Assembly (NCBI GenBank): GCA_000433675.1
Contig: FR893565.1
Span: 55-64,054, forward strand
Source of the DNA: Clostridium sp. CAG:433
GTDB taxonomy: Bacteria; Bacillota_I; Bacilli_A; RF39; UBA660
DNA length: 64,000 nt
Direction: 5' to 3'
Shown: positions 4,697 to 50,405 of the stretch, piece after piece
Layout: each line of letters opens with the position of its first letter
Position numbering within the stretch: the stretch's first letter is position 1
The notes under the pieces: generated by a model
Told to the model about the DNA's origin: nothing
Databases searched by the model: none
What the model saw: only the letters and a program-made list of their open reading frames with translations
Position numbers and translations under genes: made by a program

Positions 4697-4758
4697 TATA
4701 AGTGATTATAACACATTTTTCCCTTTAAATTCAAGGTATTTTACATTTTGTTTATGTA

Positions 4759-4787
4759 AAGAAAAAAGGTTTATTATTAAACCTTTA
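4759..4787 (-). terminator. Rho-independent terminator ending the adhesin-locus transcription units
   Basis: The hairpin AAAGGTTTAATAATAAACCTTT is followed by a T-run on the minus strand, directly after the stop of the 4788-5396 gene. Confidence 0.6.
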
Positions 4788-5407: not shown

Positions 5408-8014
5408 TTATTCTGTAGTACAAGTTAAACTTGTATTAGTCTTTTTATTATTTATAGTTGTATTAGTTGAAACCATGTTACATGTCAATAAACCAGAATT
5501 ATCATTTGCTACTGTAAGATTTGTGTTATTATAAAATAAATAATCATCTACAGATGTAACTGTACTTGGTATTGTAACAGATTTAATATTATTACTTTGG
5601 AAAGCATTCATACTTATTTGAGTTATTCCTTCATTTAATGTTAAATTTTGTATATTTAATGACCCAAATGAATTTCTTCCTATTTTCTTAACACTTCCAT
5701 ATATATTTATTGTTTTTTCTTTTGTTGCATCCAATCCTTTAAATCCATCTTCTAATATTTCTTGTGATTTCGAAGAATTTTTACCAATATTTAAATTTGA
5801 AACAATTAATTTATTAAACATAGTAGAATCCATACTTGCTACTCCATCACCAATATTTAATGTATTTACAACTCTATTACCTAAAATAGAATTTCCTATT
5901 GTAGTAACAGAATCTGGAATCGTTATTTCATTAATTGTATTCTTTGCTTCTGAATTTAGATAAAAAGCCATATTAGATATTTTTTGTAATCCCTCATTAA
6001 GATTAATACCTTTAAGTGGCACTCCAGTAAATGCTTTTGAACCTATCTCTGTTACACTTCCAGGAATATCTATACTAAGTAATCCTGAATTTGCAAATGC
6101 ATCCTCATCAATTAATGTTAAACTATTTGGAAGTTTTATATCTGTTAAACTTGTATCAGACTCAAAGGCATAACCATTTATACTTGTAAGTTTTTCTGGT
6201 AAAGTAACAGATGTTATTGAACTATCATTTGAAAAACCACTATAAGGGATTGAGTATACATTATTTTTTATTACAACTTTTTCTAATGATGTAAATCCAC
6301 TAAATGACGCCTGATCAATAACTTGTTCTGTTTGAAGAGTATCACTACCTATAGTCAAATCTTTTAGTGTCGATTTTATACCAGAAAATGTACTAGAAGT
6401 AATCTTAAATCCACCACCTGTATTTAATGTTGCTACTGGTGTTCCAGAGAACACATTACCAACAGTTGTTAAACTGTCTGGAAGATTAACACTCTTAAAT
6501 GCATTATTACCAAAGCAATAATTATTAAGAGTTTTTATTCCCTCATTTAATGTTAATTTACTAATATTATTTGCTATAAAAGCATTTTCGCCTATAGTTT
6601 CTACTGATCCTGGAACATTTAATGCAGAAATACTATTTCCAGCAAAAGATGTTGAACCAATACTTGTAACTGAGTCTGGCAATGCTAATGCCAAAATTGA
6701 ATTGCTTACAAATGAATTATCACCCAAAGTTTTTATTGTAGGAGAAATTATTAGTTTAGATGATATACTTTTTTGAGCAAAACCAGCAGTTGATATACCA
6801 GTAACTGTCTTACCATCTATTTTTGTTGGAAGAGCCCATACATTATCTTTATATGATGATGGTGCTGTAGACTTAAATCCACTTATGTTTACTGTTCCAT
6901 CTGAGTTTTCAGTTGTAGAATATAAACTTTCATCTATATAATCTTTACATATTTTATTATATTCTTCTTCACTTATTGTTCCATAATCATATATATGTTC
7001 ATTACAAACATATTTAATAGTTCCATCATCTATATAATCTTTAATATTTTCAACAGTTGTTAAATCAACTCTAATTACAGGAGTTATGTAAAATGGTGTT
7101 CCAGATTCACTAAATCCAAATGTTGATTGCATTGAATTTTGCATTAGATAATAGAATGTATTTTCACCCATTATCAAACATGGCATATATGTTGACGATG
7201 GACAAATATTTAATCCATTTAACAATGCATTGTTATTTTCACTAAGTTCAACTGTGTTCATTATTCTTGCTTTTAAACCTGTAAAATCAAACGTTGAATT
7301 TATATTATATTTTGCTTCTGGTTTTGGAATTTTATCACTCCAAGTCTCAGTTATTGTATTAATATAATTTACTAAGGCTCCATCAGCTGACCCATTATTA
7401 TTCTCTAGTGCCTTACCATAATCATATACTCCAGTATTTTTGTATACTAATTCATATTTACCTTCATCTGTATTTCCATGAAGTACAAGCCACGCATAAC
7501 ATGTATCTGATTCATTATCACACAATTTATAATTAATTGGATCAAAATATACTACTTCATTTTCTTCGTATTTAGGAAGCTTACTTGGATCTATAGTACT
7601 TGTTGTTCCACATTTATCACTTTTTTTAGCACTCCATTTACCATCATTATAAATAACATTATATTCATTAATACATAGATTTGCACCTACTACTCTTTTG
7701 TCATTTATTGTAACTGATCCACTTTGTGGTTTATTTTTTACAGTTACTGAACTTAATTCATTTACACTGTAAACAGATTGACCTGACTTAAAAAAAGATT
7801 TATATTTGCTTGAATCTAAATCAGAGAAAGTCATATTTTGATTTACCGCTCTTGCATATAACTGTCCTGATTCGATAGATGTTTGTCTCTTACTATTTTC
7901 AATAACATCTAATACTTTTGGTACTGCTACTACGGCAATAACTGAAATTATTATAATAACCGCAAGTAATTCAATTAATGTAAACCCTTTATTTTTATCA
8001 TCTAACTTTTTCAT
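5408..8014 (-). CDS. Type IV pilin-like (prepilin-type N-terminal cleavage/methylation domain) protein fused to a BspA-type leucine-rich-repeat domain. Putative minor pilin/adhesin.
   Basis: The N-terminus MKKLDDKNKG|FTLIELLAVIIIISVIAVVAVP is a class III signal peptide with Gly at -1, Phe at +1 and Glu at +5. The rest carries about 20 BspA-like LRR units with a repeated '..I..IG..AF....L..V.LP.S...IG' pattern. AGGAGG sits 7 nt upstream. The gene has its own TTGACT-17-TATACT promoter. Confidence 0.8.
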   Translation of the reverse strand: MKKLDDKNKGFTLIELLAVIIIISVIAVVAVPKVLDVIENSKRQTSIESGQLYARAVNQNMTFSDLDSSKYKSFFKSGQSVYSVNELSSVTVKNKPQSGSVTINDKRVVGANLCINEYNVIYNDGKWSAKKSDKCGTTSTIDPSKLPKYEENEVVYFDPINYKLCDNESDTCYAWLVLHGNTDEGKYELVYKNTGVYDYGKALENNNGSADGALVNYINTITETWSDKIPKPEAKYNINSTFDFTGLKARIMNTVELSENNNALLNGLNICPSSTYMPCLIMGENTFYYLMQNSMQSTFGFSESGTPFYITPVIRVDLTTVENIKDYIDDGTIKYVCNEHIYDYGTISEEEYNKICKDYIDESLYSTTENSDGTVNISGFKSTAPSSYKDNVWALPTKIDGKTVTGISTAGFAQKSISSKLIISPTIKTLGDNSFVSNSILALALPDSVTSIGSTSFAGNSISALNVPGSVETIGENAFIANNISKLTLNEGIKTLNNYCFGNNAFKSVNLPDSLTTVGNVFSGTPVATLNTGGGFKITSSTFSGIKSTLKDLTIGSDTLQTEQVIDQASFSGFTSLEKVVIKNNVYSIPYSGFSNDSSITSVTLPEKLTSINGYAFESDTSLTDIKLPNSLTLIDEDAFANSGLLSIDIPGSVTEIGSKAFTGVPLKGINLNEGLQKISNMAFYLNSEAKNTINEITIPDSVTTIGNSILGNRVVNTLNIGDGVASMDSTMFNKLIVSNLNIGKNSSKSQEILEDGFKGLDATKEKTINIYGSVKKIGRNSFGSLNIQNLTLNEGITQISMNAFQSNNIKSVTIPSTVTSVDDYLFYNNTNLTVANDNSGLLTCNMVSTNTTINNKKTNTSLTCTTE

Positions 8015-8039: not shown

Positions 8040-8068
8040 AGTATAAAATACAATCAAAAATCAGTCAA
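8040..8068 (-). promoter_or_regulatory. SigA-type promoter (TTGACT-17-TATACT) for the pilin-LRR gene
   Basis: It sits between the terminator of the giant adhesin gene and the AGGAGG SD of the pilin-LRR gene. Confidence 0.55.
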
Positions 8069-8071
8069 TAT

Positions 8072-8097
8072 AAAAAGAGTTCAAATGAACTCTTTTT
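8072..8097 (-). terminator. Rho-independent terminator after the giant adhesin gene
   Basis: The hairpin AAAAAGAGTTCA-ttt-TGAACTCTTTTT is followed by a T-run and abuts the TAA stop. Confidence 0.65.
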
Positions 8098-11000
8098 ACA
8101 CTTTTCTTGATAGTTTTCTTTGCTCTTTAAATGCGAAGTATAAACCAAGAATTATTGATACCATCGCAACTATATAAATTATATATTTTATTTGATTTAC
8201 TCCTGTTTGGATTGTTATTATTAAATATGCTAATGCTGATTCTATTACTTTTCTCTTTTCATTAGTATTTTCTAAGATATTTCCATTTACTTTTCCATCT
8301 TCTGTTATTGTAAATTCTATATCTTTATTATCACTACTTACTAGTTTATAACTTCCTTCTTCAAGATTATTTAAATATATTCTTCCTTTTATTGAAGTCA
8401 TTTCACTATTATTTGATCCCGTAATATATCTACCTACTTCTTCGTCCTTTTCCATATTTAATAATTTATATTCATTATCTACTTTCTTATACAAATTATA
8501 TGTATTTTCTGTTGATAACTTACTTCCATCACTCATTTCATATACAATTATATTTTTTCCATTTTGATTTATATTTAATACTTTTTCTATTGTATTTATT
8601 ATACTTGCACCTATACTCTCTGATGGAGCTGAATCAATTATTGTAAGTGTTCCATTCTTAACAAAACTATAATCTCCATATGTTATTGTATGTCCATTTA
8701 AATATAGATTTATAATTTTATTTTCTGGTACTATTATATCTTCAGTTAATTCTATATCTTTATATATTACTATATTTGATTCTGTATTATCTTTAACTGA
8801 ATTAATTGCTGTTTGTAAACTAGTAAAGTTAATTCCATTTACCATTGCTACTCTTTCATCATCAGCAATTACAACTAAATAACCAACTTTTGTATTGTTT
8901 GTTGTATCATCGCTTATAGAAAGTTTATAACCCGGTTCTATTTCTGTTATTGTTCCAGAAACAGGAGCAGTACCACCAATTAATTTACCATCATATAAAT
9001 TAAATGTTCCTGCATTATTTACAGCATATTTTGATCCTTGAATTACTGGACTTGTAATACTTATTACTCCACCTTTTTCACCAATATTCAATACACCTTC
9101 ATCATTATATATGCACTCTGTACTACCTGATGTATAGTTACCACTAGTTATATTTAAAGTACCTTTATATCTATTATTAAATACCCTATTTGAACTATTA
9201 ACACTATTTAACGTTGAATTAGAAACTGTTAGTGTTGAATTATTACTTATATATGCAGTACCTGATAGAGTGTCTATAATACTACTACCACTATTATTAT
9301 TTAATACAAATCCTTTTGCAGTAGCATTTTGAATTTTCAACTGACCAGTATTAATTATTTTGGATAATATACCTCCAGTTATATTTGTAATTTTATTATT
9401 TGTTAATCCTGATACTGTTCCACCAGTCACATTTACTGTTCCTGAATTTTCAAAGGAATTCATAATACCAGAATTTTGAGTAAATATTCCACTAGAAGAG
9501 TTTGTACCTGATATTGTTCCTCCATTATTATTAATATTACCATTGTTTGTTACTGCAAAGTCACCACCAGTTATTTCCATAGTTCCATTATTTTCTATTG
9601 GAGACTCATAATCTATCTTGCCTGATGACACATTATCAATCATAGTTACTGAACCATTATTTATGAATGGTATATTAGATGTATAAATATTTTTACCATT
9701 TATATCAAACGTCATATTCATATTTTCATTAACAATTCCACCATCAATTTTATTTGTATAAATCCATACATTATCAAGTAATTGCAATGTATCATTATTT
9801 GATATCTCATTAACTGCAGACCTTATATTATTATATTCTTTATTACTTGTAGTATTTTTTATAACAGGTGTATCAACTAAATAATAGCCATCCGTTGATA
9901 CCTTAACATTATAGCCATCTTCAACTTCTATTGGTTTTGAAATATTTTTCTTTACAATTCCATCGTAGAAATATAGATTTAAATATGTAGCAGTAATTCT
10001 ACCACTAATCATTGGATCTGTTGTTGAAACATTAGAGTCCCCTTTTATACCTAAAGTTACATTTATATCGCCCTGATTTTTCATAGGTGAAATAGAACCT
10101 GTAACTGTTCCAGATTTAATAATTACTGTTGGAGTCGATGTATAGGAATACATATCATAAATACTTGTTATTTTTCCTGATTCCATTGTAACTCTACTTA
10201 CACCTATAATATTTTTTACAGTTGATGAAGTTATTGAAACTCCTGATTGATATCCTTTTATATTTCCATCTATTTCAGTATTATTTAGAGTAATATTATC
10301 ATAATCCGAAAGAATAACGGTATCTACTGCTCCACTATAATTTCCACCTTCAATTGATAATTTTAATCCTCCACTATATGATGAAAATTTTGGACTAAAC
10401 TTACCACAATTTACACTACTGTAATAAGAATTACAGTTTAATATATTGTACTTTTGATTTTTCATTTCAACATTCTTTAAATTAATTGTATTCCCAACAT
10501 GTTTACTTTGCATAAATATACCATTATAAGTATTTATTGTTGCACCATCTACTTTTACTGTTGTTTCTGGATTAATTACGGTTAAGAATTTTCCAAATTT
10601 AAAATTGAAAATTCCTCCTATTATTTCTACACTCTTTGCGTCATATGTTCGAATTAATCCAAATTCAGTTGCATCACTATCAGTTGTAGTCTGATTGCTA
10701 AATCTAGGGTCTCTAGTAATATTTGTATTATTTAAAATAAGCTGTCCAGTTAAAATATCAAGAGAATGTAATTCATCATCAGCCATATCATAATATTTAG
10801 ATGTTATATTTGAATTACTAATATTTAAAATTGGGCTATTAGAACCATAATTTTTAATAATACATCCATAAGACGATGATGTTATTGTTACACCTGTTAT
10901 ATTCATATTTGATTCATTTTTTATTAAACCAACATATTCAATAGTACCTTTATTTAGTGTGAAATCTTTAGTATTAGTTATTGTTGATGATGATGGTATT

Positions 11001-14000
11001 GTAATATTATTTGCTGTAAATGTAGAACTATTTGTTATTGGTCCAGTAATATTATCATTTTCAGAAACAAGTATACCATTATTAGTTAATGCATCACTAC
11101 TTCTAATTTGTGAATTTGAAATATTTATAGTACCATTATTTGTTATTGACTTACCACTAGTGTTTATTTTTATAGAATCAACTGTTGCTGTTCCTGAGTT
11201 AAATATTACACTATTTGATGATGTTTTACCATAAGAATTGTATAAAATTGATTCTTTAATATTTAATTCACCATTTACTTTATTACTTATCATTTCACAT
11301 TCAACTGTACTTTCAATATATATTTTATTCAATTTTAATATTCCAGAATTATCGATAACATTACTTCCACCAGTATTATATATACCGCCATCATCAATTG
11401 ATGGTGTTGTTTCATTATAATTACTATTTGTTATTGTTAACTCTCCTAAATTTGAAAGGAATAAAGCATTATTTTCATTTATTTTATAACCATTTACATC
11501 TATAGTAACATTTAATCCTTCTGGAACTACAGTTGCTTCAGCACTAGCAAGCGTTGAAATTTCACTTATTACTTGTATAGTATTACCATCTGTTGCTTCA
11601 TCTATAGCCTTTTGTAAAGTACTATATTCTTTTTCAGTATCAACGTTTCTTGCAACCATTGTTTCTTTTTCATCTTTATGTAAATATTTTGAATTATCTA
11701 CTTGAATTACAGTATATTCATCTTCAGTGTCATACACATTTCCATCAATTGGTGTTGTACCTGTGAATATTCCATCGTAGAACTTAAATACCGTTTTTGA
11801 ACCAGTTTTTATACCCGCAGTTGTACCTGTTATTTCAGGATTAGAAATTGATACATTTAAACTTCCATCATCGTTAGTATCACCTTTAATACCGAAAGTT
11901 ATAGTATTTTCACTAGTATTTCGTATTGCAATTCCATCTGCAGATGTATATGTTCCACTAATTATATTAACATCACCAGTTGTAGTAGAATAAATTGCGC
12001 TATTTCCTGAACTACTAACATTTGAACCAGTTACTGTTATATTTGCCGTTCCCGTTAATTGGAATGGTACACAAGCAGCAACATATTTACCACCATTTAC
12101 TATAACATTTCCTTTTTTAAAGTTTAAAATACCATATGTTGATGTTACCATTGATGTTGATGTTATATTATTATTATTAAATATTGCACTATTACCATTA
12201 TTAGTAAAGACATTATAATTATTAGTACTAAATACATTATTAGTAAACTCAATAGAATTATCATTTGTTCCAATATATTTTAATGAAGAATTTAAGTCAT
12301 GAATTTTTGCAATTCCTGAATTATAAATCAAATTATTTGCTTCACTATAATTACCACCAGAAACATCAACATTTCCATTTGCACTTGTTTTTATGGCATA
12401 TGATGTTTTAAAAGTTCCTCCTGTAATATTAGTTATTCCATCAGAATAAACTGCAATATACCCTACTTCAAAATTTCCATCATTTATGTTTGTTGTTGCA
12501 TCGCTAGAAGTATATATAATATTATCTGTATCATTACTAATATTTCTTATAGAGAATGTACCACCAGAAACATTTAGTTTAGAATTATTAGTTATAAATC
12601 TCATTGGCTTACTTGTTTTATAATTACCACTGAAATTATGAACAATTGAACCAGAATTGAAATTCATATTACCATTGTTTATAAATGTATTTATATTGCT
12701 ATAATAACATTTTAAATTAATTCCATTATTTTCCAATGTTCCATTATTTTCTAATAAACTTTCTCCATAAACTCTACTAATTTCTGAAGAAGAATCAGAC
12801 GTTTTCAATTTTAATGTTCCATTATTTACAATCAATGGATTTTGTTTTTTATAATATACTATTTTTTTGTCATCTAAATTTAATTCTATATTTTTATTAG
12901 AATCAACTGTAGAATTCAAAACCGTATATATATCTTTTATTATTTTTATTTTTGTTTGATTGTTATCGCCATTAACGTTTTCTATTGCTTCACTTAATGT
13001 TTTATATTTAGTTTCTCCAATTTGAGCAACATAATCTTTATCAATTATTTTATTTAATGATATTTTATTTATGTCATTAGTATTTGAATAGTCAACATCA
13101 TAACCATTAGGAACTAAATTTATTGAAGTATTTATTACTTCTTCATTATCACTTATAAGAGTTCCATCATAATAATTTACAATTGACTCATTAATAGTTT
13201 CAATACTATAGTCAATAGTGTCAATAATAATATTATCACTACTAACAGTTTCATCATCACTTCCAAGATTAATAGTTGAACCTTTTCCATAAATTCCTTT
13301 TTTGTAATTTAAAATTTTAAATCCATCATTTAAATTTAGTGTTCCTTCATTTGTTACTGCTGTAAGATTACTTTTTGTTGATGTCATGGTAGTATTTTCC
13401 GCTGTAAGTATACCTAAATTTTGAATTGTTCCATCAGCAAATTGTGTATTATTTATATTTGCATTTCCTCTATTTGATAAAATACCATTAATTTTAGAAT
13501 TATTATATTTAAACTCTCCATCAGCGTAATTAGTTATATTCATTGCAGTTACATTTTCTTCTATAGTCATATTTTTAGAGTTTTCAATTTTTGTATTAAC
13601 CATATCCATATTTTTCATTGTAACTGTACTATTTGAGTTTTCAAACAAGGACATTGATTGAATAATTACATTATCCATATTTAATGTACATGAATTGAAA
13701 TCAATACTATTTATAGTTGAATCTTTTATATCTATAGTACTACTACCATTATATATATCTCCTAGTGTAGAATTATTAATTTCTACTTTTTTATTTGTAT
13801 TTGAGCTAACGGTTCCTTCAATATAACTATTATTAATCTTAATATCCTTTTTACCCATAGAATACGAATTTTTTATTCCATTATCTATCGCTTGTGAACC
13901 GTATATATTTGAATTATTTATTTCAAGCATTCCTTTTTCACTTAATTTAAACGCATAAGAGCTAGTTGATGATGGTACAATAATTGATGAATTATTTATA

Positions 14001-17000
14001 GTTAACTTATAAATAGATGAATCTATTATTGCAGATGAATAATTATAATCCCTTATGATAACATTGTCTAATGTTAAGTCTGAATTACTTTGATTATATA
14101 TAGAACCACCAACAAATGTATAACCTTTAATATTATTTTTCTTAATACTTTTTGTATATAATGAATAATTACTTGTTGATGCAATTGTTCCAGAACCTTC
14201 TACAATTTCACCTGTTTCTCTGTTATTAACACCATAAGCATATGCTCGAACATATCCTCCATTACCTATGCTCAATTTTCCATAATTATCTACGCCTGAA
14301 GATGAAGTTGAATTATCCTTTGTATAAACTAATGTTTTTTCAACACTCAAATATGCACCTTCATTATTTTTTATAGCACTACTTGCAGAACTATAAATTG
14401 ATGAAACATAATCACTATCAGATAAAGTTGGTATATCAATTTTCGAATTAATTTCGTTTATCCTTAAACTTATTTGTGTTCTTGGTAGACATATTTTTAA
14501 ATAATATTCTCCGATTTTCGTTGGTTTTAACTCGAAATTAAATGTTTGAGCTGCTGTTGACGTTCTAACAAATCTTTTTTGAACATCAAAACTAGATTCA
14601 TTTACATTTTTATCACTACTCAAACCAATAGTTACATAACCAAATGAACTAGATGCTTTAGGGAGTGTTATCGTTCCTACTATAGATTTATATTTACTGT
14701 CAAAATTTATTTTATAATTTGAAAAAGTTGAATTCATATATGTTTCTCTAGAACTAATACTTATATTTCCATAACTAAATGAATTATAACTACACTTTTT
14801 CGTACTTGTTGAGTTGTTGCAAAAGATTGAAAAATCAGATGTATCATATTTTACAGTTTTAAAATCAGATATTTGACTATTAAAATCTTCTATACGATTA
14901 GCATAAGTTGGAACATATTTAGAATCTGTTACTTTTAAACTACCGTTATTTGTAATAACTGGATCTGAAGATGTTGTTGTCAAAGTGTGACCATTTAAAT
15001 CTAACTCAACACTTTTAGTACTTTCAATCTGCAATGAATTACTTATATTTAAATCCTTTATCAATTGAACAGTATCAACTTCTTTATTTAATGTAGTAGT
15101 AACACCATCATATCTTATGTAATCATTAGTCTTATCATCGTCATTTAAATATGTAATACCAATTTCAAAACTATCTGCATTCGTGTCTGATACTGGAAGA
15201 TTTCCATCTTTTTCATAAGCAAATTGTAAATAATATATATTACCCTTTTCCAAAACTTTTGAAATTGTACCAGAAGAAGACTTATTACTTGTAACAAGTA
15301 AACTATCTTTCGAATAACTTGAGCTATTATTATAATTTATCTTTGTTAAATCATTTTTCATTAAATTAATGAATCCCATAGAATAGTTATCATTTTTAGA
15401 AATATTATAATTTATATCTATTGGCATATCACTAGTAGCATTTGTTAAATCTATTTTTATATATGATATTGCTGTTGTATTTGCAATTCCTTTATTTTCA
15501 TTAGTAAATACACCTTTTTCGCTATTATAAGTAAATCCATATGCTGGTTCATTTTTTACATAAATATAATCTAATGTCTCATCCTCATCATTTATTTCTG
15601 TTTCTTCTTCTTTAACATCTTCTTTTATTAAATCAGGAACAAGTCCATAATATAATGTTGTATTTTCTTCTTCACCAAGTTCTATATTAAATGGATCATT
15701 TTGTGTACCACTACCAGATGTTATTTTTACTTTAGGATTTAAATAAACTGTTGGTTTTAAAACATAATAATTGTTTGCTGCTGGCATAGTATATAGAGCT
15801 GTTATCATTGCTGCCGTGAATGATGGGAATGATGCACCATAAATTGGACTCATTGTCATAAGTGGTGATGAAAGGTTTACACCCATCCAGTTATTATTTG
15901 ATGAACAATCACCATATACATTAGAATTTGAACTCATACACTTGCTTCTGTCATTTCCTGAACCATCGCCTGAAGCCATTATATAATCGCTAGGATATGG
16001 AAGACCAACCTTACCAAACCATGTTGTTGTTCTATCAACTAAATCAGTTGTTGGATAACTCGAGGAATCAAAATCTGTTTTTCCGTTTTTATCCCCTCTT
16101 TCATATGTATACATCTGATATGGAGTTAAATTTTGAGTATCATTTGAAATTGCTCCTGTATTCCATAAAACTGAATCAATCATTGATTTTGCACTATCAT
16201 TCAAGCCAATAGATGTAAAATCACAGAATGTAGTTGAAAGGCCTCCAGAATTCAAACATTTTCCACTTTTCTTATTCCAATACAAACTATTATTAGTAAC
16301 AATTTCAGAACCTGAATCGTGAAGAACTTTATTATTTTCATAACCTGGATTTAATAACTTCATTACAGCTGCTTGTGACCATTCATTAACTCCATATCCG
16401 TTATTTACTTTTGAACTACTTGAATCCCAAACAATATTGCTTCCAATAGAATCATTTCTAACTAGCTTTACTCTTTTTGCATAATTTCCATCAGCATCGG
16501 TTGTATTAAATATTCCTATTACTCTCCATAACTCGTTATTAAATTTAACATAATTTTTAGTATCTTTACCAATAAACCTAAAATTTGAATCTGCTGTTCC
16601 ATCATCTGTTACATATGGAAGATTAGACTTATTACTATCATCAATTGTTCCTTTTAAATGAGGTAATGTACCAATATTTATAATATTATCAGTCACAGGA
16701 ATAAGTGAAATGTTTTTTATATATGGATGTGGTTTACCTTCGGGATTGTAACTTGCAAAATGCACATAATACACGCTTCCTTTTGGAAGAACATATTTAT
16801 AATCACGGAAATCATAATAATTACTATTACCATTTATGTAATAGCTGTAATTTGAAAAAAATGACAACAATGTATTATTCATATTATTAATAATAAGTTC
16901 TTTTTTAGAATCTTTATTATTACTTGTTATATATATACTTGAATAACTATTCAATGCTAAATTAAAATCTATTATTTTATCCGTTTTTGACTCTGTTAAA

Positions 17001-20000
17001 TCAATCTTAACATATGAATCAAATTTTTCACCATAAGGTGCATTACTTGAAATTGAATATCGATCATATGAAGAATCATAACTATCAATTCCATAATAAT
17101 TTGTTCTTAAACTTGTAGATAAATCTATATTTTCTTTATCTCCTATACCTACCACATCTATTGAATTAATTATAAATTGATCTTTTGAATTATTATATGT
17201 ATAATCTGGCTCTGAATAATTATCATATCCTTTAAAATAATAAAATTGAAGATAATATTTTTTACCTTTTTTCAATGTTTGTGAATAATTGTATGGGCCA
17301 ATATTATGTTGTGAACTACTATTGACATACATATAACCTAATGCACTATAAGAAGCACTTGATAATTTAGAATTGTCCTCATTTATTACTATATTTCCGT
17401 AATTCCCATAATATAATGTATCTAGCGATGCATTAATTATTACTTCTTTATCTTCTGTTTCGTTTGTTAAATCAACTTCTATATATGAAAATGCTGTGGT
17501 ATTTTGCATATATTGATTATTAGATTTTAATGTTCTTGTTGTTTTGTCATATTCAAAACCGTATGAACTCGATATAGTTTCAAATTCAGTATTTTCATCC
17601 ACATCATATTTATTTATTTTTTGGAAAAACATGTCATAAATTGTAACCATATTTGTTTCATTTTGAGAATATGTAGTATAATCCAATCTTATATAATATT
17701 TCTTACCTTTAGTTAAATAAAATTTATAATTATCTCTCTTAGTAGTATCGTCTGTAGTTTTCGTTTGAGATATATTATTACCATAAGCATCATTTTCTCT
17801 TACAATTACTTCAAAGTTTCCATAATAAGTATCAATAGCATCACTTGAAATAAATAAATACTGATCATTCTCATATCCTGTTAAATCTATTACAGTATAT
17901 GCTTTTACACTTTTACCTGGCTCTGATGATAGTGTATTTGTTTCACTATCGTAAGTAAATCCAGTATCATCAACATTACTAAATCCTTGCATTAGATTAG
18001 TATTTGTTGTCGTAGGTTCAGACAATGTTCCGCTATTTGTATCTTCAACAGCTTTATCTATTTTAGTATAATAAACACCAGTTCTAACTATTCTTGCTTC
18101 TGCATCTTCTAGTATCTTTAATGTTGCGACTTGTCTATTATCACTTGTTACTACACTTGCATTATATAGATATGGTTTATCATTTACTTCACCTTCTATT
18201 GCAATGTTTCCTGCAATCATTCCATCGTAGAAATTAAATCTTCCTTTTGTATTTTTATCTATATATTCATTTACAACACCAAATGTTCCACCATTTATAT
18301 ATGGTTTTGTTGTTGATACTACTAATTCATCTTCTAATTCACCTAGTGTTAGTACACCTGTTGTTTCATTTTTTAATGCTACTCCTGCATTATTTACTAT
18401 ACTTCCTGCTTCTTCAGCATTATCTTTTATTATTAAATTTCCACCATTATTTATTGTATATGTATCTTTTACTCCTGTTATTGTTTTTCCATTTATATTA
18501 AGAGTTATATCTTGTCCTTCTAATACTTCTACACTTTCTTTTGTATCTGTTACCATTTCTATTGTGCATTGGTTACTTGGACATGCTTTTATCGCTCTTT
18601 CAAGTGAGCTAAAGTTTTCATATAAATTTTCATCTTCAAATAGTTTATTTTCTCTTCCAATTATTCTTGCAACTATTTTTTCTTCAGTTTTAACTGTTAT
18701 TTCTTTTGCTTCACTTAAGTTTCCAGCAACATCTTCTGCTATTACTTTTATTTTATAATCATTTCCTGATATTAAATCATTAAATGTATATGTACTATTT
18801 TTTTCTTCATTATAGTTCTCAGTATATACTATTGTTGTTTCTAATAAATCATCTTTATATATATGTATTTGTTTCATTCCTGATTCATTATCTATTGTAC
18901 TTACATTTATATCAAAACTTGTTCCTGATACATTTGTTTCATTTAATGAATTTATTATTGGTTTTATTTTATCTATATTTGTTATGTCATGTGATTCTGT
19001 TATACTATCTACATTTTCTTTTACCGATTTTGCTACTACTGTGCAGTTATAATCTATATCAAATGGTCCTGTATATTCTTTATATTCTCCTGTGTCTATT
19101 TTATATAGATATTTATAATCTTCATGACTTGATGTTATTGTTACTGTTACTTTATTGTTTGTCCACTCTGTTGGCACATGGCTTATACTTGGTTTTTCTA
19201 TTTCTTCATATGAACTACGCAATATCATATTATCTATTACTGGTAAATTAAAGTCATATTCTTTATCATTTAATGTCCATGTTTTAAACAAATTATGTTC
19301 TTTTGTTGGATTCTCACTTGGTTTAGTTGCCTTTAATCCATATTTAACTTGTTCTTGTTTAAATAAGTTATCTCCATCCATGAACTTAACTGTATATTCA
19401 TTTGCTTCATATACAGAATAAAGTGTTGTATCTTTTGTTATTTTTGTACTAAAGTCATAGGCTGTACCATTTTCTCCTAGTGACCAATATTTAAATGTGT
19501 GTCCAACTTTACTTGGATCTGTTTCTGGTTTTATAGCGGCTTTATTATATTCTATAGTTTCATCTTCTATATATTTAGTGCCATTATCTATAAATGATAC
19601 TTTATAATTATTTACACTATATACTGAGTAAAGTGTTATATCTTTTGTTATTTTTGCATTAAAGTCATAGGCTACACCATTTTCTTCTAGTGACCAATAT
19701 TTAAATGTATGTCCTTCCTTACTTGGATCTGTTTCTGGTTTTAATGCGACTTTATTATATTCTATAGTTTCATCTTCTATATATTTAGTGCCATTATCTA
19801 CAAATGATACTTTATAACTATTTACACTATATACTGAGTAAAGTGTTGTATCTTTTGTTATCTTTGTATTAAAGTCATATGCTACACCATTTTCATCTAG
19901 TGACCAATATTTAAATGTATAACCTTCTTTTATTGGATCAGTCTCTGGTTTTACTGCAATTTTATTATATTTAACTTTTTGTGTATCACCATATGCATTA

Positions 20001-22447
20001 CCTTGATCTATAAAATTAACGTTATATTCATTTATATTATATACCGCATATAATGTTATACCTTCAGTTATTAATGTATTAAAATCAAATTCTTCTCCAT
20101 CTTGTGTAGTTGACCAATATTTAAATGTATAACCTATTTTTCCTTGGCTTTCTATTTTTTCAACTTTATTATTATAATCTACCTTTTTAGTTGTTATTCT
20201 ATTTTCATCATTAAATATTACTGCATTTTTTATGATTTCATATTTTGAATATAATTTTTTATTTTCTTTTATTTTAGTTGTAAAATCAAAATTTTTGTTA
20301 TTTTCTATCCATCCTGTAAATGTATATCCTGTCTTGATTACAGTAGGAACTTCATTACTATTTATTGTATTATCATAGTCTACTTTTATTGTTTTTATTA
20401 GTTTATTACTATCATAGAACTCTACATTATATTTATTTATTTCATATACTGAATATAATGTTAAATTTCTTGTTATAGGTAAATTTAAATTATATTCTTT
20501 CCCATTCTCTTTTTTCGACCAATATTTAAACGTATAGCCTTCCATTGATACCTTTGGTGCGATTACTAGTGATCCTGCTTCTAGTTCTTGTTTATCTATT
20601 TCTTTTCCTTTATCAATAAAAGTTACTGTATATTTATTAATATCGTACACTGAATAAAGTGTTATATCTTTTGTTACTTTTGTACTTAAATCATAACTAT
20701 CACCATTTTCTTCTAGCGACCAATATTTAAATGTATAATATTCTTTTGATGGACTTGTTGGAACTTTTATATTTTCTCCATATTCAATTTCTTGTTCATC
20801 ATATTTTTCTTTTTCATTTATAAATGTTACTGTATATTTATTTATTTCATATACTGAATAAAGAGTAATATCTTTTGTTACTTTTGTGCTCAAATCATAT
20901 TCTTTTCCATTTGGTTCTTCTGACCAATATTTAAATGTATATCCTTCTTTTGATACCTTTGGAGCATTTAAACTTCCATTTTCTTTTACTTTTTCTGTTT
21001 TAACTATTTTTTCATTATCTACATATGTTACTGTATATTCTTTTATATCTTCTGTTTGTCCATATAATACCAAATCTTTTGTTACTTCATTATTAAAGTT
21101 ATATTTATTTGTATATTTCTTATCTGTATACCATCCTTTGAAGTTTTTATTATCTACTTTTGGTTCTTTTATTTTTTCTCCTTCTAGTACTGTATCTTCT
21201 TTATATGTTTTTCCATCTAAGATATATACTACATTTTCATATATTTCTCCTTTCGCGGTTACTTTGTTTATATATGTCTTTGCTTCACTTGTACTTTCTA
21301 TATCAAGTGTTAAGCCTTCTTCTCTTTTTTCTCCTGCATTTAATGTTATTCCTTCTAAGCTTCTGTTATATAAAACTCCATTCTTTTCTTCCCATGATGT
21401 ATTCTTTTCTTTATTAAATGTTAAGCCTTCTGGTACTTCATCTTTTACTACTGTTACTACTCCTGATTTCTTTCCTGTATTTTGAACAGTTATTTTATAT
21501 TTTACTTCACCAGTCATATTTTTAACATTTCTTAAAGCTTGTTGTACTTTATCTAAGTTTCCATATTTATATGTTGTTGTTTTTCCACCATTTACTATTG
21601 TCATTTCTGTTATTTGTTTTTTTAATTCTATTTTATATGGCGTTACTTCTTTTACTACTATATTTAATTTTGATGATCCTGATATATTTACTTTTTCTTC
21701 ACTTACTTTTTCATATATATCTTCATCAATTTCTAAATTGTATTCTCCTTCTTCTATATCACTAAATACATAATTACCATTTTCGTCTGTATATGTTTTC
21801 TTTATTATTTCTCCATCTTTTTTAAGAGCTAATTCTATATTTGATACATTCATTGATTGTTTATCTTGTACATTTCCTGTTAAACTGTTATTTTTTACTT
21901 CTACATTTTGTACATTTAAATTTGTATATTTTTCTTCACTTACTTCTTTTATTTTGATTTTAGGAGTTGCTTTATATCCATTTGGCGCACCCTCTAATTT
22001 CATAACAAGTTTTAATTCATTTTCTTTATTTACCTTTGCATTTTTTACTGTTATCTTTATATTTTTTCTGTTTTCAGAAACAGTACTTGTCACATCACCA
22101 TTTGTTATATCTTTGAAACTTGCATATTTTTCATTATCATCTAAACTAGCTTCAATTATAACATCTCTTTCTTTTATATTTTCATCAGTTGATAATGAAT
22201 ATTTAATTACATAGTCTATTTCATCATAACCCTTGCTTGTAATTAAATTATCTACTGCTGCTTCATTTATATTCGCACTTAAAGAAGACGTAACATTATT
22301 TATTACAGCCTTAGATACTTTTACCTTTCCTTTATCAAAATCCATATTCCCTATTTTTAATATTCCTACGATTGCTCCTACAACTACTATCATCATCATC
22401 AAAGCAACATATTTTCTTGTTCTTAACTCTTTTAATTTCATATACAA
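8096..22447 (-). CDS. Giant (4783 aa) multi-domain cell-surface protein/adhesin
   Basis: N-terminal signal/TM segment. Cna-B/SdrD-like motif (DENGNYVFSDIEEGEYNL). TIGR01451/DUF11-like motif (YKITVQNTGKKSGVVTVVKDEVPEGL). Ten Listeria-Bacteroides (Flg_new) repeats of about 70 aa with the GYTFKYWS...TKDITLYSVY pattern. A central Cys/Trp-containing globular module of about 330 aa. Four PPC-like beta-sandwich modules ending in KG.xYY.xF.Y. About four Asn/Gly/Thr-rich parallel beta-helix modules, each closing with a (F/L)xFYDG(I/K/M)(I/L) motif. A C-terminal hydrophobic segment followed by the basic tail KEQRKLSRKV, with no LPXTG. The probable true start is the ATG two codons inside the track TTG, with GGAGAG at 8 nt. 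Confidence 0.85.
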   Translation of the reverse strand: MYMKLKELRTRKYVALMMMIVVVGAIVGILKIGNMDFDKGKVKVSKAVINNVTSSLSANINEAAVDNLITSKGYDEIDYVIKYSLSTDENIKERDVIIEASLDDNEKYASFKDITNGDVTSTVSENRKNIKITVKNAKVNKENELKLVMKLEGAPNGYKATPKIKIKEVSEEKYTNLNVQNVEVKNNSLTGNVQDKQSMNVSNIELALKKDGEIIKKTYTDENGNYVFSDIEEGEYNLEIDEDIYEKVSEEKVNISGSSKLNIVVKEVTPYKIELKKQITEMTIVNGGKTTTYKYGNLDKVQQALRNVKNMTGEVKYKITVQNTGKKSGVVTVVKDEVPEGLTFNKEKNTSWEEKNGVLYNRSLEGITLNAGEKREEGLTLDIESTSEAKTYINKVTAKGEIYENVVYILDGKTYKEDTVLEGEKIKEPKVDNKNFKGWYTDKKYTNKYNFNNEVTKDLVLYGQTEDIKEYTVTYVDNEKIVKTEKVKENGSLNAPKVSKEGYTFKYWSEEPNGKEYDLSTKVTKDITLYSVYEINKYTVTFINEKEKYDEQEIEYGENIKVPTSPSKEYYTFKYWSLEENGDSYDLSTKVTKDITLYSVYDINKYTVTFIDKGKEIDKQELEAGSLVIAPKVSMEGYTFKYWSKKENGKEYNLNLPITRNLTLYSVYEINKYNVEFYDSNKLIKTIKVDYDNTINSNEVPTVIKTGYTFTGWIENNKNFDFTTKIKENKKLYSKYEIIKNAVIFNDENRITTKKVDYNNKVEKIESQGKIGYTFKYWSTTQDGEEFDFNTLITEGITLYAVYNINEYNVNFIDQGNAYGDTQKVKYNKIAVKPETDPIKEGYTFKYWSLDENGVAYDFNTKITKDTTLYSVYSVNSYKVSFVDNGTKYIEDETIEYNKVALKPETDPSKEGHTFKYWSLEENGVAYDFNAKITKDITLYSVYSVNNYKVSFIDNGTKYIEDETIEYNKAAIKPETDPSKVGHTFKYWSLGENGTAYDFSTKITKDTTLYSVYEANEYTVKFMDGDNLFKQEQVKYGLKATKPSENPTKEHNLFKTWTLNDKEYDFNLPVIDNMILRSSYEEIEKPSISHVPTEWTNNKVTVTITSSHEDYKYLYKIDTGEYKEYTGPFDIDYNCTVVAKSVKENVDSITESHDITNIDKIKPIINSLNETNVSGTSFDINVSTIDNESGMKQIHIYKDDLLETTIVYTENYNEEKNSTYTFNDLISGNDYKIKVIAEDVAGNLSEAKEITVKTEEKIVARIIGRENKLFEDENLYENFSSLERAIKACPSNQCTIEMVTDTKESVEVLEGQDITLNINGKTITGVKDTYTINNGGNLIIKDNAEEAGSIVNNAGVALKNETTGVLTLGELEDELVVSTTKPYINGGTFGVVNEYIDKNTKGRFNFYDGMIAGNIAIEGEVNDKPYLYNASVVTSDNRQVATLKILEDAEARIVRTGVYYTKIDKAVEDTNSGTLSEPTTTNTNLMQGFSNVDDTGFTYDSETNTLSSEPGKSVKAYTVIDLTGYENDQYLFISSDAIDTYYGNFEVIVRENDAYGNNISQTKTTDDTTKRDNYKFYLTKGKKYYIRLDYTTYSQNETNMVTIYDMFFQKINKYDVDENTEFETISSSYGFEYDKTTRTLKSNNQYMQNTTAFSYIEVDLTNETEDKEVIINASLDTLYYGNYGNIVINEDNSKLSSASYSALGYMYVNSSSQHNIGPYNYSQTLKKGKKYYLQFYYFKGYDNYSEPDYTYNNSKDQFIINSIDVVGIGDKENIDLSTSLRTNYYGIDSYDSSYDRYSISSNAPYGEKFDSYVKIDLTESKTDKIIDFNLALNSYSSIYITSNNKDSKKELIINNMNNTLLSFFSNYSYYINGNSNYYDFRDYKYVLPKGSVYYVHFASYNPEGKPHPYIKNISLIPVTDNIINIGTLPHLKGTIDDSNKSNLPYVTDDGTADSNFRFIGKDTKNYVKFNNELWRVIGIFNTTDADGNYAKRVKLVRNDSIGSNIVWDSSSSKVNNGYGVNEWSQAAVMKLLNPGYENNKVLHDSGSEIVTNNSLYWNKKSGKCLNSGGLSTTFCDFTSIGLNDSAKSMIDSVLWNTGAISNDTQNLTPYQMYTYERGDKNGKTDFDSSSYPTTDLVDRTTTWFGKVGLPYPSDYIMASGDGSGNDRSKCMSSNSNVYGDCSSNNNWMGVNLSSPLMTMSPIYGASFPSFTAAMITALYTMPAANNYYVLKPTVYLNPKVKITSGSGTQNDPFNIELGEEENTTLYYGLVPDLIKEDVKEEETEINDEDETLDYIYVKNEPAYGFTYNSEKGVFTNENKGIANTTAISYIKIDLTNATSDMPIDINYNISKNDNYSMGFINLMKNDLTKINYNNSSSYSKDSLLVTSNKSSSGTISKVLEKGNIYYLQFAYEKDGNLPVSDTNADSFEIGITYLNDDDKTNDYIRYDGVTTTLNKEVDTVQLIKDLNISNSLQIESTKSVELDLNGHTLTTTSSDPVITNNGSLKVTDSKYVPTYANRIEDFNSQISDFKTVKYDTSDFSIFCNNSTSTKKCSYNSFSYGNISISSRETYMNSTFSNYKINFDSKYKSIVGTITLPKASSSFGYVTIGLSSDKNVNESSFDVQKRFVRTSTAAQTFNFELKPTKIGEYYLKICLPRTQISLRINEINSKIDIPTLSDSDYVSSIYSSASSAIKNNEGAYLSVEKTLVYTKDNSTSSSGVDNYGKLSIGNGGYVRAYAYGVNNRETGEIVEGSGTIASTSNYSLYTKSIKKNNIKGYTFVGGSIYNQSNSDLTLDNVIIRDYNYSSAIIDSSIYKLTINNSSIIVPSSTSSYAFKLSEKGMLEINNSNIYGSQAIDNGIKNSYSMGKKDIKINNSYIEGTVSSNTNKKVEINNSTLGDIYNGSSTIDIKDSTINSIDFNSCTLNMDNVIIQSMSLFENSNSTVTMKNMDMVNTKIENSKNMTIEENVTAMNITNYADGEFKYNNSKINGILSNRGNANINNTQFADGTIQNLGILTAENTTMTSTKSNLTAVTNEGTLNLNDGFKILNYKKGIYGKGSTINLGSDDETVSSDNIIIDTIDYSIETINESIVNYYDGTLISDNEEVINTSINLVPNGYDVDYSNTNDINKISLNKIIDKDYVAQIGETKYKTLSEAIENVNGDNNQTKIKIIKDIYTVLNSTVDSNKNIELNLDDKKIVYYKKQNPLIVNNGTLKLKTSDSSSEISRVYGESLLENNGTLENNGINLKCYYSNINTFINNGNMNFNSGSIVHNFSGNYKTSKPMRFITNNSKLNVSGGTFSIRNISNDTDNIIYTSSDATTNINDGNFEVGYIAVYSDGITNITGGTFKTSYAIKTSANGNVDVSGGNYSEANNLIYNSGIAKIHDLNSSLKYIGTNDNSIEFTNNVFSTNNYNVFTNNGNSAIFNNNNITSTSMVTSTYGILNFKKGNVIVNGGKYVAACVPFQLTGTANITVTGSNVSSSGNSAIYSTTTGDVNIISGTYTSADGIAIRNTSENTITFGIKGDTNDDGSLNVSISNPEITGTTAGIKTGSKTVFKFYDGIFTGTTPIDGNVYDTEDEYTVIQVDNSKYLHKDEKETMVARNVDTEKEYSTLQKAIDEATDGNTIQVISEISTLASAEATVVPEGLNVTIDVNGYKINENNALFLSNLGELTITNSNYNETTPSIDDGGIYNTGGSNVIDNSGILKLNKIYIESTVECEMISNKVNGELNIKESILYNSYGKTSSNSVIFNSGTATVDSIKINTSGKSITNNGTINISNSQIRSSDALTNNGILVSENDNITGPITNSSTFTANNITIPSSSTITNTKDFTLNKGTIEYVGLIKNESNMNITGVTITSSSYGCIIKNYGSNSPILNISNSNITSKYYDMADDELHSLDILTGQLILNNTNITRDPRFSNQTTTDSDATEFGLIRTYDAKSVEIIGGIFNFKFGKFLTVINPETTVKVDGATINTYNGIFMQSKHVGNTINLKNVEMKNQKYNILNCNSYYSSVNCGKFSPKFSSYSGGLKLSIEGGNYSGAVDTVILSDYDNITLNNTEIDGNIKGYQSGVSITSSTVKNIIGVSRVTMESGKITSIYDMYSYTSTPTVIIKSGTVTGSISPMKNQGDINVTLGIKGDSNVSTTDPMISGRITATYLNLYFYDGIVKKNISKPIEVEDGYNVKVSTDGYYLVDTPVIKNTTSNKEYNNIRSAVNEISNNDTLQLLDNVWIYTNKIDGGIVNENMNMTFDINGKNIYTSNIPFINNGSVTMIDNVSSGKIDYESPIENNGTMEITGGDFAVTNNGNINNNGGTISGTNSSSGIFTQNSGIMNSFENSGTVNVTGGTVSGLTNNKITNITGGILSKIINTGQLKIQNATAKGFVLNNNSGSSIIDTLSGTAYISNNSTLTVSNSTLNSVNSSNRVFNNRYKGTLNITSGNYTSGSTECIYNDEGVLNIGEKGGVISITSPVIQGSKYAVNNAGTFNLYDGKLIGGTAPVSGTITEIEPGYKLSISDDTTNNTKVGYLVVIADDERVAMVNGINFTSLQTAINSVKDNTESNIVIYKDIELTEDIIVPENKIINLYLNGHTITYGDYSFVKNGTLTIIDSAPSESIGASIINTIEKVLNINQNGKNIIVYEMSDGSKLSTENTYNLYKKVDNEYKLLNMEKDEEVGRYITGSNNSEMTSIKGRIYLNNLEEGSYKLVSSDNKDIEFTITEDGKVNGNILENTNEKRKVIESALAYLIITIQTGVNQIKYIIYIVAMVSIILGLYFAFKEQRKLSRKV
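19350..20000 (-). repeat. Near-identical 210-nt tandem DNA repeats inside the giant adhesin gene, encoding Listeria-Bacteroides repeats 7-9
   Basis: Blocks starting at about 19561 and 19771 are more than 90% identical over about 200 nt, and a third copy follows. The period is 210 nt, or 70 aa. Confidence 0.7.
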
Positions 22448-22520: not shown

Positions 22521-22555
22521 TTAAAAAAATCAAGATTTTTTAAACCTTGATTTTA
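22521..22555 (-). terminator. Rho-independent terminator after the paralog B gene, upstream of the giant adhesin gene
   Basis: The hairpin AAATCAAG-(11 nt)-CTTGATTT is followed by a T-run on the minus strand. Confidence 0.55.
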
Positions 22556-30451: not shown

Positions 30452-31264
30452 TTAATATAAAAGACTTAAAAGTGTATTAAAATCAACTCTTGTTAAAAAT
30501 AATATTAAAGCAGAAATAGCTAAATATGGACCAAATGGAAGCATATGTTCATCTTTTCTATAAACATTTATTATTGCAACTGGAAGCGCTAAAAATGATG
30601 CTAAAAAGACTACTACAATTGATAATCTCCATCCTAAAACAAAACCAATTAGAGCCATCATTTTTATGTCTCCGCCGCCCATCGAATCTTTTTTAAACAA
30701 AGCATTTCCTATCATTCTTATTAAATACATTATTAGGAACATTGCCATTCCATCCATAAGTATAAATAAAAGTTCATATCCAAAACTTAATAAACTAGTT
30801 ATTACTTCAGTTTTATATAATATTATTAATTTTATTATTATAAGTACTATCGAAAAAAATATATTAACTTCATCTGGTATTATCATATATTTTATATCAC
30901 TAATCATTATTATTACCATTGCTGATATAAATGTTAATGAATAAATAATATTAATTATTTCTGGATATACATCTTTATATGCTAAATAACCAAGTACAAA
31001 AAGCACACCAGTTAGAAGTTCAAACATAGGATAAAAAAGTGATATCTTTTCATGACAATGTTTACATCTTCCTTTTTGAAATATATAAGATAGTATTGGT
31101 ATTAATTCTAGTGCACCAAGTTTATGATTACAATTAGTACAATGTGATGGTGGATATACAATAGACATATCATTTGGAAGTCTATAACCTACTACATTAA
31201 AAAATGAGCCAAAGCAAATACCAATTATAAATATCATTATACTGTAAATTATTATTTCCATCAT
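30452..31264 (-). CDS. Prepilin peptidase (A24 family; PilD/ComC-like)
   Basis: Polytopic membrane protein. An N-terminal CxxC...CxxC zinc-ribbon motif pair is present (CTNC ... CKHC). A conserved Asp-containing loop (SMGGGDIKMMA) is present. It lies immediately downstream of the platform-protein gene. Confidence 0.85.
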   Translation of the reverse strand: MMEIIIYSIMIFIIGICFGSFFNVVGYRLPNDMSIVYPPSHCTNCNHKLGALELIPILSYIFQKGRCKHCHEKISLFYPMFELLTGVLFVLGYLAYKDVYPEIINIIYSLTFISAMVIIMISDIKYMIIPDEVNIFFSIVLIIIKLIILYKTEVITSLLSFGYELLFILMDGMAMFLIMYLIRMIGNALFKKDSMGGGDIKMMALIGFVLGWRLSIVVVFLASFLALPVAIINVYRKDEHMLPFGPYLAISALILFLTRVDFNTLLSLLY

Positions 31265-31273
31265 GTTCTCCTT

Positions 31274-50103: not shown

Positions 50104-50125
50104 ATATCTTTTTCCCTTTCATTCT

Positions 50126-50380: not shown

Positions 50381-50405
50381 AAATTTCCTTTCATAGACTT
50401 AAATA

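Follow-up and report, generated by a model that had tools for sequence, protein, structure and literature searches.

How would a gut bacterium use, and hold on to, a single protein chain of 4,781 amino acids (aa)? The question is raised by a 14.3-kb open reading frame (ORF) in contig FR893565.1 of Clostridium sp. CAG:433, within a stretch of 64,000 nucleotides (nt; positions 55 to 64,054 of the contig, here called the window) that has ~25% G+C and carries nearly all of its genes on the minus strand. A first-pass annotation of this DNA had described the product as a modular surface protein of unusual domain composition, a description that domain scans support. The reading that we favor, and consider probable rather than secure, is that of a Sec-exported, C-terminally retained, strain-variable fibrillar adhesin. 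The protein belongs to the familiar class of Gram-positive fibrillar adhesins, as an uncharacterised variant with no categorically new mechanism; its most notable features are a candidate sorting cassette of the form [ST][IL]QTG and an extreme divergence of alleles within one species.

The frame runs without interruption on the minus strand from 22447 to 8096, with 4783 codons when counted from a TTG at 22447, exactly as in the first-pass annotation. Residue numbers are counted from that TTG, unless the 4,781-aa product is meant, and all features of the gene given below lie on the minus strand. Because an AGGAG box at 22455-22451, read from the sequence as a ribosome-binding site, stands 9 nt before the ATG at 22441 and only 3 nt before the TTG, the true start is most likely the ATG, two codons inside the mechanical ORF; the gene would then span 8096-22441, with 4,781 codons and a stop codon at 8096-8098. 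The gene is bracketed by terminator-like hairpins, one of which (8067-8102; 16 pairs followed by a T-run) overlaps the stop codon. Promoter-like sites were no more frequent than in shuffled sequence, and no promoter was assigned.

The gene is real. At 25% G+C about 9% of random codons are stops, and by our own arithmetic a chance ORF of such length has a P of roughly e^-440. Gene calling on 9 independent metagenome contigs, one of them of 88.5 kb from the human gut, gave exactly the 4,781-aa product, which is also deposited at NCBI in identical form as CDD29929.1, 'internalin-like protein (LPXTG motif) [Clostridium sp. CAG:433]'. The cluster that holds it at 90% identity has 22 members of 4,781-4,787 aa, another full-length allele (P0130) is 96.5% identical, collinear homologues reach 5,161 aa, and 17 metagenome loci carry the gene. 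The scenario raised by the first-pass annotation, a chimera assembled from collapsed repeats, might draw on the repetitiveness of the protein, and a chimera or a pseudogene also on the contig of the closest GTDB metagenome-assembled genome (MAG), which breaks 383 nt from gyrB at the expected position of the gene, and on one interrupted allele. At the DNA level, however, repeats are confined to the zone of the Flg_new units described below and are at most 80% identical, with no long near-identical repeats. An assembly chimera is effectively refuted, because the identical product recurs on nine contigs, there are homologous alleles and near-identical DNA repeats are lacking; we give a chimera or pseudogene practically no chance.

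Two loci deserve mention in their own right. The interrupted allele (L102, contig ERZ1673738.65, upstream of 10001) is a divergent one, whose ORF extends over just 1,153 aa up to the C-terminus; either the copy is a pseudogene or in a phase-off state, or the assembly is in error. The closest GTDB genome (L001, CANRCC010000010.1, positions 1-383; GyrB 90%) has a contig that stops 383 nt upstream of gyrB, precisely where the locus of the giant gene is expected; giant genes of this type are probably lost systematically from short-read MAGs.

What, then, is the chain made of? Hydropathy finds just two membrane-like segments in it, at aa 10-30 and 4749-4770, which agrees with the signal or transmembrane segment and the C-terminal transmembrane helix of the first-pass annotation. 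The first of these, a putative signal peptide or signal-anchor (aa 11-32; 22352-22417), follows a basic n-region in an N-terminus that reads MKLKELRTRKYVALMMM...; this layout is conserved in the family, as is a G-x-x-DKY-x-GK-x-x-V motif directly after the hydrophobic segment. A basic and hydrophobic N-terminus of this kind would direct the protein to Sec export. Next comes a beta-sandwich of the Cna-B or transthyretin-like type (aa 188-263; 21659-21886), a domain for which the earlier proposal of a Cna-B-like fold holds just at threshold (CarboxypepD_reg 32.5 bits with a cut-off of 32.3, SdrD_B 28.8 bits with a cut-off of 29.7). The repeat that had been called TIGR01451/DUF11 (aa 308-401; 21245-21526) is recovered as DUF11 in a segment scan (PF01345, 33.6 bits versus a cut-off of 24.6, E = 5e-8), but the TIGR01451 model is unmatched in the whole-protein scan, and indeed no NCBIfam model matches the giant protein. 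Ten Flg_new units (Listeria-Bacteroides or InlB B-repeat type), the number given before, occupy aa 404-1078 (19214-21238) with 308 bits to PF09479, above the gathering score; through them the whole protein obtains its sole sequence match in the PDB, the InlB B-repeat (2y5p, E = 1.4e-4). The two spacers that follow (aa 1086-1256; 18680-19192) are Ig/Fn3-like by sub-threshold scores only (DUF7743 25.4 bits with a cut-off of 27, fn3 E = 0.002).

Much of the remaining chain consists of modules that close on an FYDG cap. Five such caps, at aa 1404, 3090, 3554, 4158 and 4482, were located by motif and fragment-BLAST, each preceded by a stretch rich in Asn, Ser, Thr and Gly, and the modules open with a start motif of the type (V/I)AxIG...Y.TLxxAI...L.LnG. 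The short module 1 (BH1, aa 1257-1482; 18002-18679; start motif KIVARIIG...LERAI, cap FNFYDG at aa 1404) stands apart from modules 2 (BH2, aa 2444-3136; 13040-15118; cap at aa 3090), 3 (BH3, aa 3139-3596; 11660-13033; cap at aa 3554), 4 (BH4, aa 3597-4192; 9872-11659; cap at aa 4158) and 5 (BH5, aa 4194-4530; 8858-9868; cap at aa 4482), after which a further start motif, the sixth, stands at aa 4531 and is truncated. A model of aa 4190-4783, calculated with AlphaFold2 (AF2) from an alignment of the internal modules and eight database relatives and thus covering module 5, is an all-beta solenoid with a predicted local distance difference test (pLDDT) score of 60-97 up to about aa 4600. All PDB neighbors that Foldseek gives for this model, namely Ag43, tailspikes, Awp1, tapirins, polygalacturonases and AlgE4, are beta-helix proteins, each matched weakly. 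At the level of the predicted fold, a parallel beta-helix-like character of the Asn-rich modules is supported. The first-pass annotation had proposed about four FYDG-capped, Asn-rich beta-helix modules; the motifs and the solenoid model agree with this, but there are five caps and a truncated sixth module. At E ≤ 1-10 neither Beta_helix (PF13229) nor a related family is matched by BH1, BH3, BH4 or the protein as a whole, and a search with PDB profiles was likewise negative. The same capped module is found in Flg_new proteins of ~720 aa from other bacteria. A Ser-rich stretch that resembles a beta-sandwich is inserted in module 2 at about aa 2480-2700 (14348-15010); it has a GEYYLKI motif and a weak match to Ig-like_KY (E = 0.009), and may be a fifth, degenerate binding module.

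Between the first and second solenoid modules lie four copies of a beta-rich module of ~145 aa, recognized by its KGxxYY motif and by fragment-BLAST and confirmed by a family hidden Markov model (HMM): aa 1483-1615, 1617-1772 and 1774-1922 (M1-M3, a block of aa 1483-1935; 16643-18001) and, after an acidic linker at aa 2261-2290, aa 2291-2440 (M4; 15128-15577). The module is specific to the family, with 108 instances within it and a single match in an index of 5.8 billion proteins. The four modules ending in KGxxYYLxF.Y had thus been correctly recognized by the first-pass annotation; their designation as PPC-like, on the other hand, finds no HMM support, PPC (PF04151) matching neither M1 nor M2 at E ≤ 10 nor any of 34 instances at E ≤ 0.1. 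No Pfam family was found in those 34 instances and no relative of the module in the PDB. Sub-threshold signals (PA14 E = 0.0026, RsgI3 E = 0.07) amount to a hint of a PA14-like lectin sandwich.

A further domain, absent from the first-pass annotation, sits between M3 and M4 (aa 1943-2260; 15668-16621). It comprises 320 aa, was modeled by AF2 with a pLDDT of ~88, and is a likely ligand-binding head. Its 359 homologues are mostly secreted proteins of 400-550 aa, 40-45% identical and without Pfam annotation. No match was found in the PDB, and the best match among predicted viral structures (BFVD) is a DUF6273 protein (probability 1.0 over 330 columns, E = 5.6e-3). Pfam DUF6273 (PF19789) is matched by 4 of 77 homologues of the domain (best E = 1.8e-5) and does not match the giant's own domain at E ≤ 10, so that the domain appears likely to be related to DUF6273 at the superfamily level. 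DUF6273 domains are described as C-type-lectin-like receptor-binding domains of the targets of diversity-generating retroelements (DGRs) in gut phages (PMC10743442, PMC11792537), such as the 'tentaclins' and the targets in Faecalibacterium prophages. In comparison with these targets, the giant's domain falls below the Pfam threshold, and the variation of the giant, described below, is by divergence of whole alleles and not by DGR mutagenesis: a search for DGR targeting of the lectin-like domain found no reverse transcriptase among the scanned ORFs of the window and no DNA copy of the central-domain region resembling a template repeat in the window. Among the homologues (P0002-P0120), N-termini end in ...YAYF and some match Peptidase_M73/camelysin (TasA-like); the domain would define a separate, widespread family of secreted Bacillota proteins without a Pfam model.

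Taken in order, these parts suggest a division of labor. The Flg_new, Ig-like and beta-solenoid modules would form a long, stiff stalk, and the central, putatively C-type-lectin-like domain together with the four KGxxYY modules would bind a ligand, probably a glycan. An enzymatic function can also be imagined, in which the solenoids are catalytic polysaccharide depolymerases of the pectate-lyase, glycoside hydrolase family 28 (GH28) or tailspike type, with the KGxxYY and lectin-like domains as carbohydrate-binding modules of a cell-bound array that degrades glycans or mucin. Polygalacturonases, pectate lyase, alginate epimerase and depolymerase tailspikes are indeed among the Foldseek neighbors, and the PA14 hints for M1 would fit, sub-threshold as they are. 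The fold matches are however insignificant (E from 0.02 to 7), scans of the entire chain and of isolated modules at E ≤ 1 yielded no glycoside hydrolase, lyase or Beta_helix family of Pfam, and the solenoids, being 25-38% identical between strains and variable in number, are unlike conserved active-site scaffolds. We therefore consider a depolymerase array improbable.

The predicted solenoids also recall the passengers of Antigen 43, pertactin and Hbp and the phage tailspikes, which are likewise all-beta with N- and C-terminal caps, Ag43 being the best, albeit weak, structural neighbor. The suggestion of autotransporter or pectate-lyase-like passengers in the first-pass annotation is thus reasonable as an analogy of fold; it does not extend to the mode of export, as the giant protein has no C-terminal beta-barrel translocator (no Autotransporter family of Pfam is matched, and the C-terminus has a single hydrophobic helix) and its host is a monoderm member of the Bacillota. 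Furthermore, five solenoids are arranged in tandem in one chain, and there is no relationship to passengers or tailspikes at the sequence level.

How would such a chain be kept at the cell surface? Past the truncated sixth start-module (aa 4531-4640) the protein ends, according to the family alignment, with a small conserved beta domain (aa 4641-4727, G-x-Y-K-L ... F-x-I; both within 8267-8857), a juxtamembrane motif A-x-L-I-x-x-[IL]-Q-T-G (aa 4738-4749, with IQTG at aa 4746-4749; 8201-8236), and a hydrophobic helix (aa 4750-4772) with a basic tail (aa 4773-4783; both within 8099-8200). When the last 1,199 aa served as query in an exhaustive HMMER search, 535 representatives were retrieved with E ≤ 1e-3, and 97 of these had E ≤ 1e-30; many are proteins of 3,000-5,500 aa that align to the very last residue. 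Their shared C-termini consist of the juxtamembrane motif, ~5 residues, a Tyr, ~17 hydrophobic residues and a Lys/Arg tail. In 78 representatives conservation is focused on Thr4748 (78/78) and Gly4749 (75/78), followed by Ala4740 (69/78) and Gln4747 (64/75). The pentapeptide takes the form [ST][IL]QTG, and its Gly is 34 residues from the C-terminus. As a whole this cassette, from the beta domain through ~20 hydrophobic residues to the basic tail, would keep the chain at the cell surface.

The position of the motif and the tripartite layout are those that define sortase substrates (PMC4155245), with an unorthodox pentapeptide. The first-pass annotation had correctly reported the KEQRKLSRKV tail and the lack of LPXTG, and had concluded that the protein has a non-sortase C-terminal transmembrane anchor; this conclusion is made doubtful by the conserved pentapeptide and basic tail and by the presence of sortases in relatives. 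IQTG is the sole candidate for a sorting pentapeptide in the protein, and AYLIITIQTGVNQIK is the candidate peptide for sortase cleavage after Thr. In the anchoring step that we envisage, a sortase would cleave at IQT|G and link the chain to peptidoglycan. Such processing is slightly likelier, in our judgment, than a permanent membrane anchor, while itself falling a little short of an even chance.

A wall to which the protein could be linked is indicated by genes for VanY, CW_7 and FemAB proteins (in the window, VanY, a CW_7 protein and PrsW). Bacteria of the order RF39, to which the host probably belongs, are predicted to be mostly peptidoglycan-walled and are not among the orders reported to be without srtA/B (PMC10868615). 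A sortase and a SpaA pilin are encoded 3 kb from one family member (P0145). In the locus of a relative (L085, 356-2525) a SpaA-domain pilin ending in ...VTMPITSKESNLAYLIMILINSVGYAFIKKYN, with an atypical 'MPITS' signal, lies beside a sortase of 163 aa with an LMTC motif; because this pilin adjoins a sortase, the arrangement suggests that non-canonical sorting motifs are usual in the lineage.

Several observations weigh against the picture of a wall-anchored adhesin and should be stated together. The adhesive role is a proposal drawn from the architecture. Segmented AF2 modeling worked for the solenoid segment and the central domain, but gave for KGxxYY module M4 an unusable model with a pLDDT below 50, and the structural matches of the solenoid are individually insignificant, the best having E = 0.023. 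At the N-terminus there is no obvious AXA cleavage site, for which reason tethering of the protein at both ends is conceivable. As to the cassette, neither LPXTG nor a variant with Pro at position 2 occurs in the whole protein (patterns LP.TG and [LIVNSP]P.T[GNAS]), that position being taken by Ile or Leu; the upstream ELII is unusually hydrophobic for a sorting signal; and the C-terminal 52 or 96 aa match no NCBIfam sorting-signal model at E ≤ 10. No sortase is encoded in the 64-kb window, nor adjoining four of five family loci. The closest precedent, CbpA of Clostridioides difficile, is also a large adhesin of a gut member of the Bacillota, with a pentapeptide of the same polar-aliphatic-Q-T-G form before a hydrophobic stretch and a basic tail; this precedent is itself unproven, as its NVQTG was not cleaved by SrtB in vitro (PMC4155245). 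The literature contains no mention of IQTG together with sortase.

Several of these points favor a different use of the same C-terminus, as a permanent single-pass membrane anchor like those of the large adhesins of related wall-less Mollicutes, with A-x-L-I-x-x-IQTG as a structural strand or turn next to the membrane or as a docking site for a 620-aa partner protein. Besides the missing LPXTG, HMM match and in vitro cleavage of NVQTG and the lack of a sortase gene in the window, this alternative can appeal to the hydrophobic ELII(T/S)I, which resembles a beta-strand and is modeled as one by AF2 at low confidence, to a gene for a membrane-anchored partner that is conserved upstream in three loci, and to the position of the lineage among orders that are losing wall functions (PMC10868615). 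On the opposite side, the invariance is focused on T-G, the two residues between which sortases cut, and this pair stands as far from the end as is canonical for sorting signals and precedes a hydrophobic run with a basic tail; wall genes are present; and sortases exist in relatives. A permanent anchor has, in our estimate, a substantial chance of being correct, if not an even one. Less likely, and to be entertained only tentatively, is a broader proposal: that the cassette is a previously unrecognised sorting signal of RF39-type bacteria, processed by a dedicated non-canonical sortase or another enzyme, perhaps with the 620-aa partner, and serving to mount allele-swappable beta-solenoid/lectin fibres of megadalton scale. 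The RF39-type gut Bacilli, to which the signal would be specific, stand at the transition between walled and wall-less cells.

The second line of evidence for a surface-exposed adhesin comes from the comparison of alleles. In 30 complete family members, which range from 850 to 5,541 aa, the N-terminal signal and the C-terminal cassette are always kept, while the middle contains 0-15 Flg_new units, 0-6 KGxxYY modules, 0-1 central domains and 2-7 caps. No relative was obtained when GTDB genomes were searched with the C-terminal 594 aa, and a search with the C-terminal pattern returned the gene of the same species only, at 17 human-gut loci. Several of these loci have a GyrB that is 100% identical to that of the window over 641 aa. 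In them the C-terminal 253 aa are 96-97% identical to the window allele, yet identity is only 25-28% in BH3, 29-32% in BH5 and 53-68% in M4, with ORFs that remain open and caps that differ in number (4-8); of the genes downstream, the pilin-LRR (leucine-rich repeat) gene encodes a protein 64-100% identical, and a 211-aa protein is 86-100% identical. Another locus (L082), from a close relative, displays the pattern too: the flanking VanY and PPase are 97-98% identical to those of the window and the first 400 aa of the giant protein 95%, as against 67% for the last 253 aa, 41% for M1-M3 and 31-38% for solenoids BH2-BH5, values for the solenoids as low as those obtained with a much more distant organism.

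This is direct evidence that, within one species, conserved ends enclose a passenger that is exchanged or diverges rapidly. Either recombinational replacement of alleles or diversifying selection by immunity or phages would account for it. Just such a combination of conserved ends and variable passenger is expected of a structure that is exposed at the cell surface to pressure from immunity or phages, which fits the hotspot of diversity observed here.

These results can be placed beside better known systems. With the sortase-anchored fibrillar adhesins of Gram-positive bacteria (Cna and SdrD, and the 7,651-aa adhesin of Mobiluncus mulieris, PMC10619420) the giant protein shares an export signal, a long stalk of repeated beta domains including one of Cna-B type, and putative binding domains, as well as a T-G motif, hydrophobic stretch and basic tail 17-45 aa from the end. 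It differs from them in a pentapeptide without proline, set in the hydrophobic context A-x-L-I-x-x and not matched by any sorting-signal HMM, and in that half of the stalk is predicted beta-solenoid instead of Ig-like. The likeness to Listeria internalins is limited to the match of the Flg_new units to the InlB B-repeat: no LRR family is matched at E ≤ 1, LRR_5 being present just in the neighboring pilin gene. The current public name, 'internalin-like protein (LPXTG motif)', is therefore wrong on both counts, as neither an LRR domain nor LPxTG occurs in any part of the protein. Under this misleading name the sequence has been public since the MetaHIT CAG assemblies.

The host is an uncultured, small-genome, low-GC member of the Bacilli from the human gut, and is probably to be placed in the order RF39. 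Its GyrB is 90% identical to that of an 'uncultured Bacilli' MAG from rabbit and ~70% identical to those of MAGs that carry the labels Bacilli, Tenericutes, Mycoplasma or Erysipelotrichaceae, one of which is a circular genome of 1.26 Mb; in GTDB, CAG-433 is the name of a family in RF39 (PMC8035907), a name that we take to cover this organism.

Do the neighboring genes say anything about function? Two paralogous genes (22553-24415 and 24415-26301, minus strand) encode N-terminally membrane-anchored proteins of 620 and 628 aa, 32% identical to each other and without Pfam or PDB relatives. A homologue of 615-660 aa is found immediately upstream of the giant gene in three of five locus types: the window, with its two paralogues, L082, and the distant L086/L087 (35-37% identity). 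From this arrangement a dedicated partner of the giant protein appears possible.

On the other flank, immediately downstream (5408-8014, minus strand), is the gene for an adhesive-looking giant pilin, an 868-aa prepilin (KGFTLIELL; N_methyl) fused to four BspA-type LRR_5 blocks, so that the giant gene lies between pilC/pilD and the prepilin-LRR gene. Genes for a prepilin peptidase with PilC/T2SSF (30452-32980) and for ComEC with ComEA (58248-60819), also on the minus strand, make up a dispersed competence-pilus set in a reduced genome; no pilus ATPase (T2SSE) was matched among the ORFs scanned in the window. The giant protein could on these grounds be a part of the neighboring type IV pilus or competence apparatus, such as a tip or accessory adhesin, given T2SSF and prepilin peptidase genes 8-10 kb upstream and a downstream pilin-LRR gene that is likewise strain-variable. 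We regard this as very improbable: a class III (G/FTLIE) signal is missing from the giant protein, which the N_methyl model does not match, its gene is flanked by terminator-like hairpins, there are no pilus genes beside family members in L082, L083, L085 and L086, and the N-terminal part of the pilin has no similarity to the central domain (a relationship between the two was rejected, with an hhalign probability of 0.6%).

Two other groups of genes on the minus strand of the window may be noted. At 45490-52389 a 1,537-aa protein with two FtsK/SpoIIIE domains (perhaps EssC-like) is encoded downstream of a 440-aa CW_7-repeat gene and of a 214-aa gene whose N-terminus looks LXG-like by eye; this cluster may be a remnant of type VII secretion. 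At 38209-39477 a 422-aa surface protein is encoded in which a cohesin domain and two cadherin-like domains are combined with a signal peptide and, at the C-terminus, with a hydrophobic stretch and a Lys-rich tail; it too has a non-LPXTG anchor.

For the annotation of such genomes, three module families without a Pfam model have been delimited: the FYDG-capped solenoid, the KGxxYY module and the DUF6273-related domain found on secreted proteins. If the [ST][IL]QTG motif is real, wall-anchored proteins could be predicted more widely among poorly known Bacillota. RF39-type bacteria, uncultured and with small genomes, are widespread in the human gut, and the giant gene may bear on how they are retained in their niche; if the genome has ~1.3 Mb, like that of the circular relative, we infer that this one gene takes up ~1% of it. 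Since the locus is among the most strain-variable seen here, it is a probable interface of the bacterium with host mucus, immunoglobulin or phages, and a potential strain marker.

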